Below, one piece after another: positions 50,761 through 61,330 of a DNA stretch of 64,000 nucleotides. Made by a program: the position numbers and the translations under genes. The stretch is from Escherichia coli (lineage in GTDB: Bacteria > Pseudomonadota > Gammaproteobacteria > Enterobacterales > Enterobacteriaceae). The DNA lies in NCBI RefSeq assembly GCF_050920415.1, contig NZ_CP169309.1, one strand, 5' to 3'. The notes beneath the pieces were generated by a model. It had not been told where the DNA came from and did not search any database. It saw only the letters and a list, made by a program, of their open reading frames with translations. Every line of letters starts with the position of its first letter. Position 1 is the first letter of the stretch.

Positions 50761-51156
50761 CTACAGCGTCATCACATTATTCAGCCGCCCTTCAAAATAA
50801 ATAGCTAACTGTGACAATGTCAAATTCCAGCTCTGAACTGGCATTGTCCATTTTTTCTGCGCATTCATCAGTCCCAGGTAAAGTAGCTTCAACAGGCTGT
50901 TTTCATTCGGGAAGGCACCTTTTGTTTTGGTCAGCTTTCTGAACTGCCGGTGAACTGACTCGATAGCATTGGTCGTGTAAATCACCTTACGGATACCCGC
51001 CGGATAACGGAAGTAATGCGACAGATTTTCCCATTTTCGCCGCCACGACTGAAGCACCACCGGATACTGCTGACCCCATTTCGCCTCCAGCTCGTCCAGC
51101 GCTGTTTCTGCCGCCTCCTTCGATACCGCACGGTACACCGGTTTCAGGTCGGCCAT
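50761..51156 (-). pseudogene. IS256-family (Mutator-like) transposase, C-terminal remnant
   Basis: 131-aa ORF matching only the C-terminal region of IS256-family transposases (...YTTNAIESVHRQFRKLTKTKGAFPNE.SLLKLLYL...); N-terminal two-thirds absent. Confidence 0.7.
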
Positions 51157-51170
51157 GAGCCAGGGAAAGA

Positions 51171-52307
51171 TTACGAAAGCCCGCTCCCCGCAAGGACTGA
51201 CGCCAGATACTTTCTGTCCATGGCTGCTTTTCGCATCTTACGTCTTAACCCTGCCTTGAATACCTTATCATTCGTCAAAATATTAATAGCGATGTGCCGT
51301 ATCCCTGAAAATAATTCTGCTGCATTTCCTCTTCTTATTTTGCAGTCGTCTTCATTCATTACCACGTCCAGACGCCAGTGCAGCTTATTCTCCACGTGCC
51401 AGTGATTTCGGATCGCTGTGGCGAACTTCTCTGCGGTTAAATCAGCAGAACTGATATAATATCTGACCGTCATTTCTGGCTCTTTCTTTTGTTCTGCTAT
51501 TATTGACCGAAAGGAGACTGCCACGCATAATTTCTTCAGACCTTTCCATTCAAACGTGAAATCAATAAGTTCATCAGGGACATCGCAAACAATATGAAGA
51601 CGGATTTCTTCTCTGCCGTGACTCTTTTCACTAATTGCGTAACTGTCATGCTCTGGATTATTTAATTCTTTCAGCGGAAATTTTTCCTCGAAGGCTTTAT
51701 TTAGCCGCCCCTGGTTTCCTTTTACAGCGAATAAATAATCACCTCCCTGTTTTTGTATCTTCTCTGCAATATCTTTCTGGCAACCCATCGCATCAGTTGT
51801 GATGATTTTTCCTTTAATATCCAGCATGTTAAGAAGTTCTGGGATAGCTGTAATCTCATTGGATTTCTCATCCGTCTTGATCTGTCCGATGACCAGACTG
51901 TGCATTGTTGAGAACGCACTAATGACATGAATCGCTCCCCTGCGGCGACTCTTGTCATAAGAGTGCCGGAGCGTTTTTCCATCAATTGCAATGACGTCTT
52001 TATCATCTGAAGAATGACATTCACGCATCCGGTTAATAAAGCATTCGTGAAATTTTGCAGGACTGATACATGATACAACTCTGGCAATAGTATCGTGAAC
52101 AGGAATACCATTTTCAAAATCACCATATTGCTTCAAAAAATCGAGATGAGTTTCCCCGAAATCCTCTATATCTTCCCAGCCTTCTGCACCCGAAATAACG
52201 GCGCAAATAGTCAACAGTAGAATATCCGATAATTTATGCTCCACTTTCCAGGCTTGTCTGTAATCGGGGATAATAGAAATATGTTCCATCAATTTTTTAA
52301 GTTCCAT
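51171..52307 (-). CDS. ydcC: ISAs1-family transposase (Rhs H-repeat-associated protein)
   Basis: 378-aa [40 protein letters not shown]..., the characteristic H-rpt ORF of E. coli Rhs elements. Confidence 0.9.
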
Positions 52308-52439
52308 TTTGTTCTCCTTAATTATGTAAGGAGTATTTGATCATGTATAAGCAATAAAAAACAGCTTCAGGTAATGAGGAATATCTCAATTTTTAAACAT
52401 AAAATGCGAATTGTTTAGTACAAAAAAGCAGCGTTAAGT

Positions 52440-54323
52440 GAGTAGGCCACCGGAACCTCCCCGACAGCCTCTCGCAGAACCGTACGTGAAACTCTCGCTT
52501 CATACGGCTCCCGTCAGGCAAACGCGCTTCCTGGTCCTGCTTTCCAGTGGGCAAACAACTCCGGCTTCTCTTTTGACAGTCTTTCCATTAGCTGACACGC
52601 CTTCGTCTTTCTATACCACAGGGTTTTATATTTCTTTCTCGCCCACGCAATCAGCGTCAGATTAATATATCTGCATACTTTCTTCATCGCTGATTTGTGG
52701 TATCTCGCGTAATAATTCAGCCACCCCGATATTATCAGATTCAGCCACTTCGCAATATCTTCGAGACTCATCTCCACCCTGCGTCTGATCCACAGTTTCC
52801 TGAGTTTTCCAATCATGCCTTTCTGCGCACGGTTACTCGCCGCCGGGCTGAAACTCGTAAAGAGGTTTCCCCGCCGGTGGTTACGTGCTCTTCGCGCTCT
52901 GAACGTATACCCCAGAAAATCAAACTGCACTGTTTCATGGTTCGCCTGTCGTTCGCTGTCTTTGCAGTAAACTATTTTCGTTTTCTCCGGATGTAATTCC
53001 AGTCCACATTCCTGAAAACGTTTTGCCAGCTTATTCAGTAATTCCTCTGCCTGTTGTTTACTGCCACAATGAATTAATCCATCATCTGCATAACGGCACC
53101 AGGGAATTTCCGGATAATGTAACGTCAGCCATTTATCAAACACATAGTGCAGAAATAAATTCGCCAGTACCGGGCTGATGACTCCACCCTGTGGCGTACC
53201 TTTATTTCTTTCCTTCAGTGTTCCATCCGGCATCTGCACCGGCGCTGTCAGCCAGCGGCGAATAGACAGTCTTACCCATTTATCCGCACAATGTTTATCT
53301 ACTGCCCTGAGTAATAAATCGTGGGGGATATTATCGAATAACCCTTTAATATCAAACTCAAGACACCAGTCGTATTGCCAGCAACGTTTTCTGGTGACTG
53401 CTATTGCATCCAGCGCTGATTTTCCATGCCGGTATCCGTATGAATCATTCAGGAAATAACGCTCCACTAATGGTTCAAACGTTACCAGCACCGTCATCTG
53501 CGCTATTCTATCGCTTACTGTCGGTATTCCTAAAAGTCTTTTGCTGCCATCCTTCTTCGGAATTTCCACCGCACGCACTGGCGGCGGCATCCAGCTTCCC
53601 GACGATAACCTGTTCCAGATTTTGTACAGATTTCCTTTCAGATCCCGCTCAAAATCTTTCAGCGTCTGGTTATCCACTCCGGCAGCTCCGGCATTCGCCT
53701 TTATCCGCCGGTACGCTTCCACCACATGCAATTTACTGACCTGAAACGGTTTTGTCTGTTCACACACAGTCTCCTCCTGCCTACAGTTGGGCTGTGATGC
53801 AGACTGCCCGACGCTGTCCCTTCGCTCCACGTTCATTACAAACGCTTCCTCACTACTACGAACAGCTCTGCCCCGGTTTCGCACATCGATACTCTCATAC
53901 TCATAATTTCGGTTATTTGTAATTCTCTCTTGACATTGCGACGACCGGTTCCCGTAGTTCCTGCAAAGAGCCCGATACAGCGTCATGCCTGCTATACACC
54001 GGACATCATTCACGCAGCATTCGGAATTCACCCGTAAATTAATCCCGGCGGTATCACGAAACCTCCGGTTTTGATGTCACTTAGGACTAACGACGTTTCA
54101 ACACAGGTTCGGGTTTACTCATCTCACTGTATCTCACATAGGATCAGATCTCGTCTGATCGTTCCCCCTGCGCTCACTACCATGGCTCTTTACCACAGCA
54201 GCCGGGGTTGTTTGGGACCGACTTCCGACAGCAGATCCCGGTGGGCCTGCCACCATCTCTTCACAAGCTTATGCTTATTACATGCAAAACGTCCCGTTTT
54301 GCATCTTTGTGCCTACGGCACAC
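52440..54323 (-). mobile_element. Group II intron (boundaries approximate)
   Basis: On the minus strand: 5' GUGUG-type start near 54323, internal RT/maturase ORF, and a canonical domain V hairpin GAGCCGTATGAAGCGAGAGTTTCACGTACGGTTC (plus coordinates 52477..52510) followed by a domain VI-like helix. Confidence 0.8.
52514..54031 (-). CDS. Group II intron-encoded reverse transcriptase/maturase
   Basis: 505 aa with RT motifs including YADD (RYADDGLIHC) and a C-terminal maturase (domain X) region; stop codon abuts domain V. Confidence 0.9.
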   Translation of the reverse strand: MNSECCVNDVRCIAGMTLYRALCRNYGNRSSQCQERITNNRNYEYESIDVRNRGRAVRSSEEAFVMNVERRDSVGQSASQPNCRQEETVCEQTKPFQVSKLHVVEAYRRIKANAGAAGVDNQTLKDFERDLKGNLYKIWNRLSSGSWMPPPVRAVEIPKKDGSKRLLGIPTVSDRIAQMTVLVTFEPLVERYFLNDSYGYRHGKSALDAIAVTRKRCWQYDWCLEFDIKGLFDNIPHDLLLRAVDKHCADKWVRLSIRRWLTAPVQMPDGTLKERNKGTPQGGVISPVLANLFLHYVFDKWLTLHYPEIPWCRYADDGLIHCGSKQQAEELLNKLAKRFQECGLELHPEKTKIVYCKDSERQANHETVQFDFLGYTFRARRARNHRRGNLFTSFSPAASNRAQKGMIGKLRKLWIRRRVEMSLEDIAKWLNLIISGWLNYYARYHKSAMKKVCRYINLTLIAWARKKYKTLWYRKTKACQLMERLSKEKPELFAHWKAGPGSAFA

Positions 54324-54398
54324 CGTGATCTTTCCCTGGGAATAAAAGAAAGTTCACTGTAGTTATTAATGATATTTACTTCTTCATTCATATTTTAC

Positions 54399-54788
54399 CT
54401 ATTTAGAAAAACATATGCTCGCTTCCTCCGTGATAGAGATAACATAATCAGGTATTATTTCAAATACAGGAGTAATTAAGTATGGTCTGGAGTAACCATT
54501 ATTAAAATCCACACTATCAACTAAAAAACTAATAATGCTATCTTTGTCAGAAACAATCAATGATTCTCGGTAATAAGTTTTTTTACCTTTATTTCTCACA
54601 ATATTCAGTGCAATGTAGAATCTATCGTCTATCATAATGTCAGAAAGATTTTTAACATGATCTACCCAAGTGATGCTTCGACATTGCTCTTTTTTATTGA
54701 GCATTGCAAAAAAAATATCTTCTTTCACTTTCTCACTTGGTAACTGACTTAAAGGTTTTATACCTGTAAATATAAATTTAGTTTTCAT
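54399..54788 (-). CDS. Hypothetical protein (AT-rich accessory ORF D)
   Basis: 129-aa ORF, no recognisable family from sequence alone; 72 bp upstream of the intron 5' end. Confidence 0.5.
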   Translation of the reverse strand: MKTKFIFTGIKPLSQLPSEKVKEDIFFAMLNKKEQCRSITWVDHVKNLSDIMIDDRFYIALNIVRNKGKKTYYRESLIVSDKDSIISFLVDSVDFNNGYSRPYLITPVFEIIPDYVISITEEASICFSK

Positions 54789-54818
54789 ATTGGCTAATTC
54801 GTTTGAAGAGTTGCTACT

Positions 54819-55241
54819 TTATTCAATCCAGTAAGCTAGTCGCTCTCCAGAACTTAGATTTTCCCTTTTGTAATAAAATACCGTATCGAAATTAAGTGAA
54901 ATGTTTGCCGCTATAACTTTAAACTGTAATATTGACTCGGAATAAAACTCGAGAATAATATTAGCATCATTATCATCGTTAATTATTTTTAGTTTCATAA
55001 AATCATCAAGAGGATCACAAGTCCAGTGCGTATCACCACTCATGTAAGATGGTGCATTTATTATTATTTCAAAATTATGATAGTACGAAAGATCACTACT
55101 GCCAACGATAATTAATCGCCCATTACTATAGAGATAAATTTCAAAATCTATCCAACAGTTATTTCTGTAATTACGCCTAATTTCGTCCACTACATTTTGT
55201 TGTTTCATTTTGGATTCTTGTAAAAGATAATTACTACGCAT
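54819..55241 (-). CDS. Hypothetical protein (accessory ORF C)
   Basis: 140-aa acidic ORF, low GC, no TM segments. Confidence 0.5.
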   Translation of the reverse strand: MRSNYLLQESKMKQQNVVDEIRRNYRNNCWIDFEIYLYSNGRLIIVGSSDLSYYHNFEIIINAPSYMSGDTHWTCDPLDDFMKLKIINDDNDANIILEFYSESILQFKVIAANISLNFDTVFYYKRENLSSGERLAYWIE

Positions 55242-55285
55242 TGACTAAGTGAAATATTATCTTCTATAGATCGTATCTGTAAAAT

Positions 55286-55618
55286 TTAAAATGTGTTAAC
55301 TTCACTTCTTAATAATACAAATTCCTCCAGGCTTAATATTTTATTTTTTAATTCATCATGCCTGATCGTATCATTGATATAGAGAAGATAAGTATACTCA
55401 GGATAATCGACCTCATCCACTACGCCATCCAAAACATCATAATTTTCTTTTAGAAGAAAATGTTCATGTCTTTTGTCTCCGGGCAATAAATAGATTCCGC
55501 CATAATAAAGGCTTTCTTTCTCTTTAAATGTGATTTTTATCAGATCTTCTAACATCTTCTGCGCATCATATATTTCCACCCCATAATATCCATACAAGTC
55601 ATAATAACCCATTCCCAT
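55286..55618 (-). CDS. Hypothetical protein (accessory ORF B)
   Basis: 110-aa ORF with ATG start preceded by AGGTGA RBS. Confidence 0.55.
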   Translation of the reverse strand: MGMGYYDLYGYYGVEIYDAQKMLEDLIKITFKEKESLYYGGIYLLPGDKRHEHFLLKENYDVLDGVVDEVDYPEYTYLLYINDTIRHDELKNKILSLEEFVLLRSEVNTF

Positions 55619-55639
55619 TTCACCTGTTTGAATTTGTAT

Positions 55640-55840
55640 TCATTCACCCTCACGGGATTTACCAATTACATTCAGCAGTGGCATTAAATGTAATGTTACA
55701 AAACTATCACATCTTTCCTGAATTATCATTTGGATATAATGTTTTGTGTCATTGCTACCATATTCAGCCATATAGAATATTACTGCGTCCATTATATCTC
55801 TTTCATAGTTTTCTAATGCATCAACAAATACATCAACCAA
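55640..55840 (-). CDS. Hypothetical small ORF (accessory ORF A), possibly a remnant
   Basis: 66-aa frame with only a TTG start and no clear RBS; the frame is closed by stops just upstream; in the same frame as ORF B, separated by one TGA. Confidence 0.3.
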   Translation of the reverse strand: MVDVFVDALENYERDIMDAVIFYMAEYGSNDTKHYIQMIIQERCDSFVTLHLMPLLNVIGKSREGE

Positions 55841-56050
55841 AGTATTAACGTCTTTACTTGATGGATGCTCTGAAAGATTATTTTCATTTGTGAGAATCTG
55901 AATCGTACCATTACGATTCTCTTAGAAATATCATTAAATACGCTACCGCCCTACCCTGATAGACTGGCCCCCTGAATCTCCAGACAACCAGTATCACTTA
56001 AATAAGTGATAGTCTTAATACTAGTTTTTAGACTAGTCATTGGAGAACAG

Positions 56051-56416
56051 ATGATTGATGTCTTAGGGCCGGAGAAACGCAGACGGCGTACCACACAGGA
56101 AAAGATCGCAATTGTTCAGCAGAGCTTTGAACCGGGGATGACGGTCTCCCTCGTTGCCCGGCAACATGGTGTAGCAGCCAGCCAGTTATTTCTCTGGCGT
56201 AAGCAATACCAGGAAGGAAGTCTTACTGCTGTCGCCGCCGGAGAACAGGTTGTTCCTGCCTCTGAACTTGCTGCCGCCATGAAGCAGATTAAAGAACTCC
56301 AGCGCCTGCTCGGCAAGAAAACGATGGAAAATGAACTCCTCAAAGAAGCCGTTGAATATGGACGGGCAAAAAAGTGGATAGCGCACGCGCCCTTATTGCC
56401 CGGGGATGGGGAGTAA
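56051..56416 (+). CDS. insC: IS2 transposase OrfA
   Basis: 121-aa product [47 protein letters not shown]... Confidence 0.95.
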
Positions 56417-57279
56417 GCTTAGTCAGCCGTTGTCTCCGGGTGTCGCGTGCGCAGTTGCACGTCATTCTCAGACGAACCGATGACTGGATGGATGGCCGCC
56501 GCAGTCGTCACACTGATGATACGGATGTGCTTCTCCGTATACACCATGTTATCGGAGAGCTGCCCACGTATGGTTATCGTCGGGTATGGGCGCTGCTTCG
56601 CAGACAGGCAGAACTTGATGGTATGCCTGCGATCAATGCCAAACGTGTTTACCGGATCATGCGCCAGAATGCGCTGTTGCTTGAGCGAAAACCTGCTGTA
56701 CCGCCATCGAAACGGGCACATACAGGCAGAGTGGCCGTGAAAGAAAGCAATCAGCGATGGTGCTCTGACGGGTTCGAGTTCTGCTGTGATAACGGAGAGA
56801 GACTGCGTGTCACGTTCGCGCTGGACTGCTGTGATCGTGAGGCACTGCACTGGGCGGTGACTACTGGCGGCTTCAACAGTGAAACAGTACAGGACGTCAT
56901 GCTGGGAGCGGTGGAACGCCGCTTCGGCAACGATCTTCCGTCGTCTCCAGTGGAGTGGCTGACGGATAATGGTTCATGCTACCGGGCTAATGAAACACGC
57001 CAGTTCGCCCGGATGTTGGGACTTGAACCGAAGAACACGGCGGTGCGGAGTCCGGAGAGTAACGGAATAGCAGAGAGCTTCGTGAAAACGATAAAGCGTG
57101 ACTACATCAGTATCATGCCCAAACCAGACGGGTTAACGGCAGCAAAGAACCTTGCAGAGGCGTTCGAGCATTATAACGAATGGCATCCGCATAGTGCGCT
57201 GGGTTATCGCTCGCCACGGGAATATCTGCGGCAGCGGGCTTGTAATGGGTTAAGTGATAACAGATGTCTGGAAATATAG
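56374..57279 (+). CDS. insD: IS2 transposase OrfB (DDE integrase domain)
   Basis: 301-aa ORF overlapping insC in the -1 frame, typical IS3-family arrangement. Confidence 0.95.
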
Positions 57280-57513
57280 GGGCAAATCCACCTGATAACA
57301 TGATCTGCACTGCGTTATCATATCGACATGTTTCTCTATATGCGAAGAGATGTTTTATTTTCGGATTAAATTAAATTGATATTCAATATAAAATACAGAA
57401 TCACATCAGCGACATAAATAGTTGTAACAACTTCAATTACCATTCATAGCAAACAAATAGACGTCCAGTTAACTTTGCCGATGATTTATTAACATTAATC
57501 TCCGGCATTGTTG

Positions 57514-58131
57514 TTAAATAATGGCATTCCTTTTTAGTACTTCTTGTAACTTTGGTATCTGACATACAGCATCAGCAATCGCACTGATATTCGTGGCATT
57601 ATCCTGAAACCATTCATGCCCAGGCCCCCATGTGCGCATTGTGCAAAGATAACAGTCCACCAGCGTGAGTTGCTCTCCAAACACATACGGTTCAGCAGTC
57701 AATTGTGAATTCAGCCAGATATAAAGCGATTTGCGATATTCAATAACATTCTTCTTCAACTGTTCAGGTGCGTCGGGGACCCAACGTTCAGGGTAATCGG
57801 CGAAGGTAAACGTTGGATAGACATTAGCGACCAGCCAGACCAATAGCCGTTGAAACTGCTGACGTTCGGCACGCCCAACTGGTGGCGCAAGATCCGGGCT
57901 GCGGTCGAGCACCATTAGCGCAATAGCCGCGCTTTCGGTCATAATCTCGCCATTTTCCAGCGCCAGTGTCGGAACCTGACATAGCGGATTGAGCTTTTGC
58001 AATAGCTCACGCGCAATACCTTCACTGTCAAAACCGCTGACATCAACAAACTTATAGGGAATATCTGCCAGCGTAAGCATGAGTTCGCTGATTGTAGAAC
58101 CCCATCCCGGCACGCCATACATCTTTAACAT
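57514..58131 (-). CDS. yncG: Glutathione S-transferase homolog
   Basis: 205-aa minus-strand ORF; divergent from ansP. Confidence 0.85.
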   Translation of the reverse strand: MLKMYGVPGWGSTISELMLTLADIPYKFVDVSGFDSEGIARELLQKLNPLCQVPTLALENGEIMTESAAIALMVLDRSPDLAPPVGRAERQQFQRLLVWLVANVYPTFTFADYPERWVPDAPEQLKKNVIEYRKSLYIWLNSQLTAEPYVFGEQLTLVDCYLCTMRTWGPGHEWFQDNATNISAIADAVCQIPKLQEVLKRNAII

Positions 58132-58413
58132 AGCGCCTCCAAAACGCCTAAAAGCTTAAGTGTAGAACACCCATTTCACACGGCGTTGAGGGGCCAGAAG
58201 CGCCTTTCTGACTCTTTTATAACCACACACCTGAATTACCCCCCTAATTTATATGGTTATTTTTTGCATCGTTTCCCGAATGAAGGTAGGATTCTGCGCC
58301 GACAGACATATACCCATAAAGAATAACGGTTAGCGCTGTCATAGTTACCGTGAATAAAGAATGTATTTGTGGTAACGAGAAACGTTAATTCATGAAGATC
58401 ATCAGGGAGCGCA

Positions 58414-59913
58414 ATGAGATCACATAACAACGACGTAACTGATCAACACGCCGCGAAACGCCGCTGGCTTAATGCCCACGAAGAGGGGTATCACAAAGCG
58501 ATGGGCAATCGCCAGGTACAGATGATCGCCATTGGCGGCGCGATTGGCACCGGCTTGTTTTTAGGTGCAGGAGCCCGACTGCAAATGGCGGGGCCAGCAC
58601 TGGCACTGGTCTATTTAATCTGCGGCCTGTTTTCATTTTTTATTCTGCGTGCATTGGGTGAGCTGGTGCTACACCGCCCTTCCAGTGGCAGTTTTGTCTC
58701 TTATGCCCGTGAGTTTTTAGGAGAGAAAGCCGCTTACGTTGCAGGCTGGATGTACTTCATCAACTGGGCGATGACGGGGATTGTCGATATTACCGCCGTC
58801 GCTCTGTATATGCATTACTGGGGTGCGTTTGGCGGCGTGCCGCAGTGGGTCTTTGCGCTCGCTGCGCTGACCATCGTTGGCACCATGAATATGATTGGTG
58901 TGAAATGGTTTGCGGAGATGGAGTTCTGGTTTGCGCTTATTAAAGTGCTCGCCATCGTGACCTTTTTGGTCGTGGGTACAGTGTTCCTCGGTAGCGGTCA
59001 GCCGCTGGATGGCAACACCACTGGCTTTCATTTAATTACCGATAATGGCGGCTTCTTCCCCCACGGTTTACTGCCTGCGCTGGTATTGATTCAGGGCGTA
59101 GTGTTTGCTTTTGCCTCTATTGAAATGGTTGGAACAGCTGCCGGAGAATGTAAAGATCCGCAGACCATGGTGCCTAAAGCCATTAACAGTGTGATTTGGC
59201 GTATTGGCCTGTTTTACGTCGGCTCCGTGGTGTTGCTGGTTATGTTATTACCGTGGAGCGCGTATCAGGCGGGGCAAAGTCCGTTCGTGACGTTTTTCTC
59301 TAAACTGGGCGTGCCTTACATCGGCAGCATTATGAACATTGTGGTACTGACTGCTGCCCTCTCCAGCCTGAACTCAGGTCTGTACTGCACCGGGCGTATT
59401 CTGCGCTCAATGGCGATGGGCGGCTCTGCACCAAGTTTCATGGCGAAAATGAGTCGTCAGCATGTGCCGTATGCCGGGATCCTGGCGACGCTGGTCGTTT
59501 ATGTTGTTGGCGTATTCCTTAACTATCTGGTGCCGTCGCGCGTATTTGAGATTGTGTTGAACTTCGCGTCGCTGGGAATCATCGCTTCATGGGCGTTTAT
59601 CATCGTGTGCCAGATGCGCCTGCGTAAAGCGATTAAAGAAGGCAAAGCAGCGGATGTCAGTTTTAAACTCCCAGGTGCGCCCTTTACGTCGTGGCTGACA
59701 TTACTGTTTTTACTGAGCGTCCTGGTGCTGATGGCGTTCGATTACCCGAACGGGACTTATACCATCGCTGCGCTGCCGATTATTGGCCTTCTGCTGGTTG
59801 TAGGTTGGTTTGGTGTGCGCAAACGCGTTGCAGAAATACACAGCACTGCGCCAGTCGTCGAGGAAGATGAAGAAAAACAGGAAATTGTGTTTAAGCCTGA
59901 AACGGCGAGCTAA
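58414..59913 (+). CDS. ansP: L-asparagine permease (APC family)
   Basis: 499-aa 12-TM amino acid permease. Confidence 0.95.
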   Translation: MRSHNNDVTDQHAAKRRWLNAHEEGYHKAMGNRQVQMIAIGGAIGTGLFLGAGARLQMAGPALALVYLICGLFSFFILRALGELVLHRPSSGSFVSYAREFLGEKAAYVAGWMYFINWAMTGIVDITAVALYMHYWGAFGGVPQWVFALAALTIVGTMNMIGVKWFAEMEFWFALIKVLAIVTFLVVGTVFLGSGQPLDGNTTGFHLITDNGGFFPHGLLPALVLIQGVVFAFASIEMVGTAAGECKDPQTMVPKAINSVIWRIGLFYVGSVVLLVMLLPWSAYQAGQSPFVTFFSKLGVPYIGSIMNIVVLTAALSSLNSGLYCTGRILRSMAMGGSAPSFMAKMSRQHVPYAGILATLVVYVVGVFLNYLVPSRVFEIVLNFASLGIIASWAFIIVCQMRLRKAIKEGKAADVSFKLPGAPFTSWLTLLFLLSVLVLMAFDYPNGTYTIAALPIIGLLLVVGWFGVRKRVAEIHSTAPVVEEDEEKQEIVFKPETAS

Positions 59914-59921
59914 TTGCAAAA

Positions 59922-59944
59922 TTGCCCGGCTACGTGCCGGGCAA
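59922..59944. terminator. Bidirectional hairpin terminator between ansP and yncE
   Basis: TTGCCCGGC-TACGT-GCCGGGCAA flanked by A-run and T-rich sequence. Confidence 0.65.
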
Positions 59945-60027
59945 ATTTAGATTACTGACGAAGGTGTGCCGCATGCGGCGTGATAAAAGTCAGGCAAGTC
60001 TCTCCGTTTTCACCCTCGCCATATCTA

Positions 60028-61089
60028 TTACAGCGCAATACGAATCACATCGTCTGGCTGGGTAGCTTCCTGCTGTTTAGTGGATTTTTGTTTCACACTG
60101 ACATACAGCGTTTTGCCATCGGCAGACAGCGCCAGGCTGTTTGGATGAGTCGGCGTATCGAACGTTTTCACCACTTTATAGCTTTTCGCGTCAATCACAC
60201 TGACTTTACCTGCCTGACGATGCGTTACGTAGGCTTCATTACGCGCTGGGTTAAACAGCACAGCCAGTGATTCCGGTGCCGCAACCTTCGCCAGAATATT
60301 GCCATTACGGGTATCGACCACTAGCACTTCTGCCGCTTTAGAATCGGTGATAAATGCACGCTGCCTGGCGGTATCGAGGCTGATGTTGATAAAGAAGTGC
60401 TCTTTGCCATCATCCAGCAGCTTTTTACGGCTGAGGATTTTATTGTCGGCGGTGTCGATGGTAATCAATTCACCATCGGCATTAGTGGTGTAAAGACGTT
60501 TGCCTTTGCTATCCAGCGCCAGACCGGTACTCATTTTACCGGTGTTCTGGATGGCGGTTTTCAGTTTGATATTCTCGCCATCAACGACCCAAATCACGCT
60601 CTCTTTACCAATACCACTGATGTAAACGGTGTTCGTGGCATCATCAGCTACCAGCTCACGCGGTTGCAGCGGGCGCACCTCTTCCGTGCGCTTACGATCA
60701 TCCAGCACCAGACGGCCTTTCACTTCGCCCGTTTTGGCATCTATCGCCGTGACCGCGCTGTTTACGGTGTTACCAAACCACAACGTCTGAGTCGTGTTAT
60801 TGATGGTGGCACCAAACGGCTTGAGATCGTTATGGATCGCCTGAGTTACCTCCAGAGTGACCGGATCGAGACGATAAACCACCCCGCCTTTATCCAGTTT
60901 GCGGCTTTGTGAAGTAGCGAGCCACAGCGCGTTTTCCTGCTGGCTATAAGCCATTTCGTAGGCACCTTTACCTACCGCTTTACGCAGCATTTCTTCTGCG
61001 GCCTGCGTACTGAATGATGAAGCAATAAGCAATGAACCTAACAGTAATGAACCACGCAGGCGCGATGAAAACAGATGACGTAAATGCAT
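60028..61089 (-). CDS. yncE: Periplasmic seven-bladed beta-propeller protein
   Basis: 353 aa with signal peptide; synteny ansP-yncE-yncD. Confidence 0.9.
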   Translation of the reverse strand: MHLRHLFSSRLRGSLLLGSLLIASSFSTQAAEEMLRKAVGKGAYEMAYSQQENALWLATSQSRKLDKGGVVYRLDPVTLEVTQAIHNDLKPFGATINNTTQTLWFGNTVNSAVTAIDAKTGEVKGRLVLDDRKRTEEVRPLQPRELVADDATNTVYISGIGKESVIWVVDGENIKLKTAIQNTGKMSTGLALDSKGKRLYTTNADGELITIDTADNKILSRKKLLDDGKEHFFINISLDTARQRAFITDSKAAEVLVVDTRNGNILAKVAAPESLAVLFNPARNEAYVTHRQAGKVSVIDAKSYKVVKTFDTPTHPNSLALSADGKTLYVSVKQKSTKQQEATQPDDVIRIAL

Positions 61090-61330
61090 GACGACTCCCT
61101 TTGATGAACCGATATTTTTGCTGCTTCACAATGCTTCGCTAAGCGTAATCATCGTTACGCTCTTGTTATAAATGGGAATGGTAATCATTATTTTCTCAAA
61201 TGTGGAGCATTTCTTGCCGTTACGACTACAATTTTCTCAATTACTTAACGTATTGTGCCGTTTCATTTTCCATAAATTTACAATTTCATTACCATGACGG
61301 CGTTTTCCCATTCTTAACCTGGCTTTTTTC

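Follow-up and report, generated by a model that had tools for sequence, protein, structure and literature searches.

Between yncG and a group of four small ORFs (A–D), a 64-kb window of an E. coli genome (the window being the whole stretch of DNA that was analysed) carries an insertion sequence. The locus raises the question of whether this element arrived by a simple and recent transposition, with little consequence for its surroundings, or whether it also helped to shape the locus. A first-pass annotation of the same DNA had described a complete 1331-bp IS2 with both terminal repeats, flanked by a perfect CCTGA repeat and lying 218 bp from the yncG stop (57514) and 119 bp from the start of ORF A (55840). 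The element and its flanking repeat proved correct to the base, and both distances were correct as well. The same annotation had gone further, proposing that the element cut ORFs A–D off from any former upstream promoter or gene and that it may have contributed to a rearrangement in which an Rhs core was lost; these proposals fared less well, as detailed below. The relevant features are collected in Table 1.

Table 1. Positions of the IS2 insertion, its component parts and the adjoining genes in the window
Feature	Position	Strand	Description and basis
IS2, complete	55960..57290	+	1331 bp; 4/1331 bases differ from K-12 IS2A
IRL, left inverted repeat (recipient end)	55960..56001	+	42 bp; 5'-TA start; sequence TAGACTGGCCCCCTGAATCTCCAGACAACCAGTATCACTTAA
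IRR, right inverted repeat (donor end)	57250..57290	+	41 bp; CA-3' end; reverse complement TGGATTTGCCCCTATATTTCCAGACATCTGTTATCACTTAA
OrfA operator TAAATAA (55999-56005) and start of PIRL, TGAT (56007-56010)	55998..56019	+	putative, by likeness to PMC3299598
orfA (InsC/TnpA)	56051..56416	+	121 aa; DNA-binding regulator; NCBIfam NF006928, Pfam HTH_Tnp_1
A AAA AAG (A6G), -1 programmed frameshift window	56368..56374	+	IS position 409
orfB (InsD)	56374..57279	+	301 aa; catalytic part of transposase; NCBIfam NF006918; Pfam rve, rve_3, HTH_21
Left CCTGA copy	55955..55959	.	5-bp target-site duplication; read directly
Right CCTGA copy	57291..57295	.	5-bp target-site duplication; read directly
yncG	57514..58131	-	205 aa; glutathione S-transferase family; ORF, named yncG in MFDS1022581, whose sequence is identical here
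Four small AT-rich ORFs, A–D	54399..55840	-	ORFs reading away from IRL; 'hypothetical protein' in MFDS1022581
ORF A	55640..55840	-	119 bp from insertion to start at 55840
ORF B	55286..55618	-	
ORF C	54819..55241	-	
ORF D	54399..54788	-	

The element begins with TAGACTGGCCCCC and ends with GGGGCAAATCCA (55960-57290), and the 30 nt of its left end occur only once in the window, against 0 occurrences expected from shuffled sequence. Its G+C content (53%) is far from that of the flanks (31%). The terminal inverted repeats were also recovered independently by a repeat finder (pair I1, 55969-56001 and 57250-57282); for their lengths, 42 bp for IRL and 41 bp for IRR, and for the roles of the two ends as recipient and donor, we followed PMC3299598. 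In that paper, residues 39–51 of IS2 are described as the operator bound by OrfA together with the start of a weak extended -10 promoter, PIRL; here these positions read TTAAATAAGTGAT.

The coding parts left little doubt about the identity of the element. The product of orfA matched the NCBIfam model NF006928, 'IS2 repressor TnpA', with 276.4 bits (cut-off 229), and that of orfB matched NF006918, 'IS2 transposase TnpB', with 727.6 bits (cut-off 597). The two frames overlap at the A6G frameshift window described for IS2 in PMC3299598, and a -1 slip at this point is predicted to fuse them into an uninterrupted 409-aa OrfAB, a protein that PGAP labels 'programmed frameshift' in other IS2 copies. 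When the 409-aa fusion was compared with Pfam, it matched HTH_Tnp_1 (5e-18), HTH_21 (4e-10), rve (5e-18) and rve_3 (6e-18), so that both an N-terminal helix-turn-helix and a C-terminal integrase-type (rve, DDE) catalytic domain are present. All the sequence features that define IS2, a member of the IS3 family, were found in place and intact wherever they could be tested. The segment is an ordinary full-length IS2, a known element, and this copy is apparently functional, to judge from its sequence; nothing contradicts the identification, and the behaviour of the element is that of the textbook throughout.

The copy closely resembles IS2A of K-12 MG1655 (NC_000913.3 381260-382590, insC1/insD1), to which it is identical at 1327 of 1331 bases (99.7%). 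The two share the 1331-bp length, the 42-bp and 41-bp ends and the overlap of orfA and orfB at the A6G window, and their InsC and InsD proteins are 100% identical (to InsC1 and InsD1). They differ at positions 32 (G here, in IRL), 606, 900 and 906, the latter three differences being synonymous. They also occupy different insertion sites, flanked by ATTAC in K-12 and by CCTGA here, both duplications being 5 bp long. The G at position 32 (window 55991, A in K-12 IS2A) lies inside the transposase-binding part of IRL. We considered whether it might be a lineage-specific cause of IS2 expansion, an idea that was ruled out by the presence of G32 in B7A-type copies of other strains.

The target-site duplication deserved a closer look, since the direct repeat can be read as seven bases, CCTGATA, on both sides of the element. 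In K-12 IS2A, in a B7A copy and in two copies from E. coli MFDS1022581, the element always starts with TAGACTGG, next to the unrelated 5-bp duplications ATTAC, ATCCT, CTTTA and GAATC, respectively. The left TA is therefore the IS2 terminus, and since it belongs to the element, the target duplication amounts to 5 bp and not 7. By chance, two fixed positions would agree over 5 bases with a probability of about 1/1024. A 7-bp inverted repeat, TGATAAC...GTTATCA, overlaps the target; we looked for a terminator or a stable hairpin at this place in the empty site and found none (RNA fold z-score 0.03), and the inverted repeat itself is not a terminator.

What the locus looked like before the insertion could be read from other genomes. 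An empty-site query, made by joining 1 kb from each side of the element, was searched against 5,426 complete E. coli genomes. In E. coli MFDS1022581 (NZ_CP169399.1), 2005 of the 2005 bp of the query were matched at 100% and in a single piece. Conversely, a 15-kb query around IS2 matched this strain at 100% in two pieces that covered everything except 1336 bp. Over the whole window, MFDS1022581 aligns to positions 1-55961 and 57291-64000; the two sequences are collinear over 62.7 kb and differ there by 7 substitutions and a single-base indel, and exactly 1336 bp are absent from MFDS1022581, corresponding to IS2 plus one CCTGA. Four of the 7 substitutions (57481, 59817, 61321 and 61501) lie within 4 kb to the right of IS2, the other three being spread over 56 kb; this clustering could stem from recombination over a short patch or from errors in sequencing.

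The empty state is not peculiar to that strain. Eleven further complete E. coli genomes (such as GF4-3, at ~91%) share the left flank and show a single-piece empty site. The string expected for an empty site in the first-pass annotation, ...CGCTACCGCCCTACCCTGATAACATGATCTGC..., could be read verbatim in the alignment of other genomes, being found in MFDS1022581, in more distant E. coli and in assemblies labelled E. fergusonii (here and below, this name is the NCBI label on the proteins of the assemblies). An identical ORF A is encoded in assemblies from 127 index blocks; in the ten of these assemblies that were listed, the spacing between yncG and ORF A was invariably 337 bp (10/10); the empty-site 28-mer occurred in all of them (10/10) and the filled-junction 28-mer in none (0/10). 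Three loci from E. fergusonii-labelled assemblies were likewise empty, with both flanks 96–98% identical to those in the window. In the empty sites of MFDS1022581, GF4-3 and ten further loci, CCTGA is present as a single copy. Searches for the filled junction returned 0 matches in the 5,426 complete E. coli genomes, in the GTDB species representatives and in the JGI metagenome contigs, and the filled site is private to the source genome among the sequences searched.

Since every outgroup examined was empty (GF4-3, the ten assemblies and the three E. fergusonii-labelled loci), the empty state is by parsimony the ancestral one. The insertion was a simple one, without any adjacent rearrangement, because the duplication is intact and the flanks are collinear with those of the empty-site relative. 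The suggestion of a simple, recent transposition made in the first-pass annotation thus stands, given the empty site in MFDS1022581. The age of the event cannot be fixed more precisely, because 7 substitutions per 62.7 kb are not zero and some of them may be sequencing errors, so 'recent' should be taken on the scale of strain divergence.

The likely source of the element emerged from the comparison of IS2 copies. Two copies of MFDS1022581, one chromosomal (NZ_CP169399.1 1496096-1497426) and one on a plasmid (NZ_CP169400.1 40838-42168), are 100% identical to the window copy over 1331 bp and have their own 5-bp duplications, CTTTA and GAATC, so that only location sets them apart. Among the 5,426 complete E. 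coli genomes, 100%-identical copies were found solely on the MFDS1022581 chromosome and its 242-kb plasmid. The next-best copies differ by one base, at position 906, and the synonymous variant T906 was found only in the window copy and in the MFDS1022581 copies. IS2 as such is widespread, with matches in 4,853 of the 5,426 genomes (median 4 places per genome, maximum 41); MFDS1022581, with 20 chromosomal and 11 plasmid places, 31 in all, is near the top of this range. Because the sister strain is empty, no filled site occurs elsewhere and 100%-identical IS2 is restricted to MFDS1022581, a recent, lineage-internal insertion is indicated; the identical copies and the high load in MFDS1022581 further suggest that the window copy came from an IS2 population expanding in the lineage.

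Taken together, we consider it very probable (roughly 0.93) that the locus carries a complete, functional-looking IS2 that arrived from resident copies of the lineage, through a single simple transposition after the split from MFDS1022581, without rearrangement and with an effect that is probably neutral or mildly polar. The element is known and the insertion is ordinary; nothing departs from the textbook. By analogy with published work on IS2, OrfAB would be made through the -1 frameshift at A6G, with PIRL allowing low-level expression of orfA and orfAB. OrfAB would then cut IRR and join it beside IRL, yielding a figure-of-eight, and replication of this intermediate would give a minicircle whose abutted-end junction forms the strong promoter Pjunc. 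Finally, the attack of the abutted ends on the target would be staggered by 5 bp, and repair of this stagger would duplicate CCTGA. The figure-of-eight and minicircle pathway, Pjunc and a product flanked by direct repeats are all described in PMC3299598, and an intact 5-bp duplication with collinear flanks is the product expected of that pathway.

As for the effect on neighbouring genes, IS2 reads on the plus strand, yncG and ORFs A–D on the minus strand, and the element lies between ORFs A–D and everything upstream of them. From IS2 it is 48 nt downstream to the ancestral ATG of ORF A, and 119 nt to the start of the ORF as it now stands. The proposal that IS2 separates ORFs A–D from upstream sequences is thus true as geometry, but any functional meaning is hypothetical: the sole upstream promoter-like site (minus strand, 57346-57317), now cut off from ORF A by IS2, matches the consensus at 9 of 12 positions, and 9-of-12 matches are no commoner than chance (8 found, 7.3 expected; 4 and 4.2, respectively, in the empty site). 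In the empty site, the stretch from yncG to ORF A contains no predicted intrinsic terminator. Minus-strand transcription coming from yncG or from 57346-57317 would meet IRR first and then cross 1.3 kb of antisense IS2. The antisense RNA contains more C than G (29% and 24% overall; 37% and 17% in local stretches). Rho acts on untranslated RNA, and the antisense IS2 transcript, being untranslated with respect to the flanking operon and having C above G, is a plausible Rho substrate. We found no usable literature on the polarity or orientation effects of IS2. We infer that the insertion probably has no effect or is mildly polar, lowering the expression of ORFs A–D.

ORFs A–D themselves offer few clues to function. 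None of them matched NCBIfam, and ORFs B, C and D, which were scanned with Pfam, gave no match there. A PADLOC match to NsnC (E=0.0013, covering 42 residues in an ORF of 66 aa) and PHROGs matches of unknown function (E=0.005 and 0.098) were dismissed as insignificant. Relatives of ORF C are confined to E. coli, E. fergusonii and Pectobacterium, all as 'hypothetical protein'. ORF A as listed has 66 aa and a TTG start; compared with its 90-aa homologue in GF4-3 it is out of frame at the N-terminus (55840-55911, minus strand), because 1 nt has been deleted downstream of the ancestral ATG (55911), and its sequence suggests that it is possibly a decaying gene. Given that ORF A seems to be damaged already, there may be no expression of the cluster. 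In two E. fergusonii-labelled loci (L020, 8251-8423, and L021, 8243-8423) the array of small ORFs extends to a gene with the PF28203 domain, CDI_Immunity_Comp. This is suggestive only, but ORFs A–D may be part of an orphan immunity-gene island, though none of them matches a known family.

A more eventful account would make the insertion one event of an ongoing IS2 burst that silenced an E. fergusonii-like orphan array, possibly of immunity type, by cutting it off from yncG read-through or from its own promoter. The burst finds support in the 31 IS2 matches of the sister strain and in the occurrence of T906 in all the inspected copies of the lineage. On the whole we regard this account as doubtful; if true, it would provide a small natural example of the IS-driven loss of an orphan immunity island.

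The opposite effect, namely that IS2 switched on its neighbours through an outward or fusion promoter, appears improbable. IS2 is known to build fusion promoters from an outward -35 located in IRR, as at ampC, acrEF and neoR (PMC9330008). The present insertion resembles these cases (Jaurin & Normark 1983, as cited in PMC9330008) in being intergenic and near a gene start. In those cases, however, IRR faces the activated gene, with a -10 at the right spacing, whereas here IRR points to the 3' end of the convergent yncG, ORFs A–D lying beyond IRL, an end for which no outward promoter has been described. Moreover, in a consensus scan no promoter-like match crossed either junction between IS2 and its flanks, and none combined a -35 inside the element with a -10 outside it; the sole nearby plus-strand match (57292-57321) consists entirely of host DNA and is also there in the empty site.

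We also asked whether the copy could have been misplaced in a collapsed or chimeric repeat assembly. The many identical IS2 copies of the lineage (31 places in MFDS1022581) create a setting prone to assembler mistakes, and the filled junction is seen in no other public sequence searched. Yet a misjoin would neither duplicate exactly 5 bp of a target of which every empty-site genome has one copy, nor leave flanks that meet to the base after IS2 and 5 bp are taken out; in addition, the 5-bp rule holds in the four other IS2 copies inspected. An assembly artefact is thus highly improbable.

Even less credit can be given to the idea that an IS2-linked deletion or inversion removed an Rhs core from the locus, leaving ORFs A–D as orphans. 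It draws on the fact that in many E. coli the interval between yncG and yddH contains a VgrG-Rhs element with a group II intron and an ISAs1/ISEc1 copy behind it, and that the window retains such an intron and ISEc1. In strain C10, for instance, the interval comprises yncH, ISEc1, VgrG, an Rhs core, immunity genes and orphan Rhs tips, after which come a group II intron, an ISAs1 fragment and pptA; of all these, just the intron and ISEc1 have counterparts in the window, at 96–97% identity. Against the idea, MFDS1022581 has the same order as the window (yncG, four small ORFs, group II intron, ISEc1, IS256 fragment, yddH) without IS2. In GF4-3-type E. coli and in the E. fergusonii-labelled loci, yncG is directly followed by the small ORFs (A–C or A–D), with no Rhs, VgrG or IS2. 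Deletions and inversions that an IS produces next to itself leave it without matching duplications; here an intact duplication is present, and the DNA on either side of the element runs collinear with the empty site. Finally, a tblastn search of the whole window with the Rhs core, an orphan Rhs tip, an immunity protein, VgrG, YncH and PptA of C10 returned nothing at E<=1e-3, so no remnant of Rhs, VgrG, yncH or pptA is detectable in the window in this way. The Rhs-removal role of IS2 is effectively refuted. As the same architecture exists without it, IS2 can be taken out of any scenario, of Rhs loss or of Rhs never having been there, for the yncG–yddH interval; the events that shaped this interval predate the insertion of IS2 and did not involve it.

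An old insertion lost from MFDS1022581 by precise excision, a process that recreates the exact empty-site sequence, would fit a comparison of two genomes, and an excision enhancer is reported to make the excision of IS3-family elements efficient (bioRxiv 10.1101/2023.06.07.543989), but loss is unparsimonious with all the examined outgroups empty and the window IS2 is 100% identical to other copies of the lineage, private T906 included, so we give this alternative scarcely any weight.

For the simple, lineage-internal transposition, the practical meaning is limited. The filled or empty state of the yncG site, together with the T906 variant, provides clean markers to separate the source strain from its closest sequenced relative, and the two document an active spread of IS2 in the lineage. 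Beyond strain typing the significance is small, the useful outcome being a negative one, i.e., that IS2 has no place in the history of this Rhs-less locus.

Some features of the flanks are worth recording in their own right. The yncG allele of the window is only ~87.5% identical to the yncG of most E. coli, and ORFs A–C are found beside yncG in just 12 of the 5,426 complete genomes. Judging by its sequence, the segment made up of 54339-55961 and 57291-60500 looks E. fergusonii-like, through either introgression or old polymorphism. Its homology to the E. fergusonii-labelled loci ends exactly at 54339, which places the boundary of the group II intron just beyond ORF D. The intron itself spans 52427-54338 on the minus strand, with Rfam matches to RF00029 (52437-52512) and RF01999 (54137-54254), and its reverse transcriptase/maturase ORF is at 52514-54031 (minus strand). 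Further on, at 50761-52307 on the same strand, are an ISEc1/H-repeat (ydcC) transposase gene (51171-52307) and a fragment of an IS256-family transposase (50761-51156), which take the place that pptA has in strain C10.
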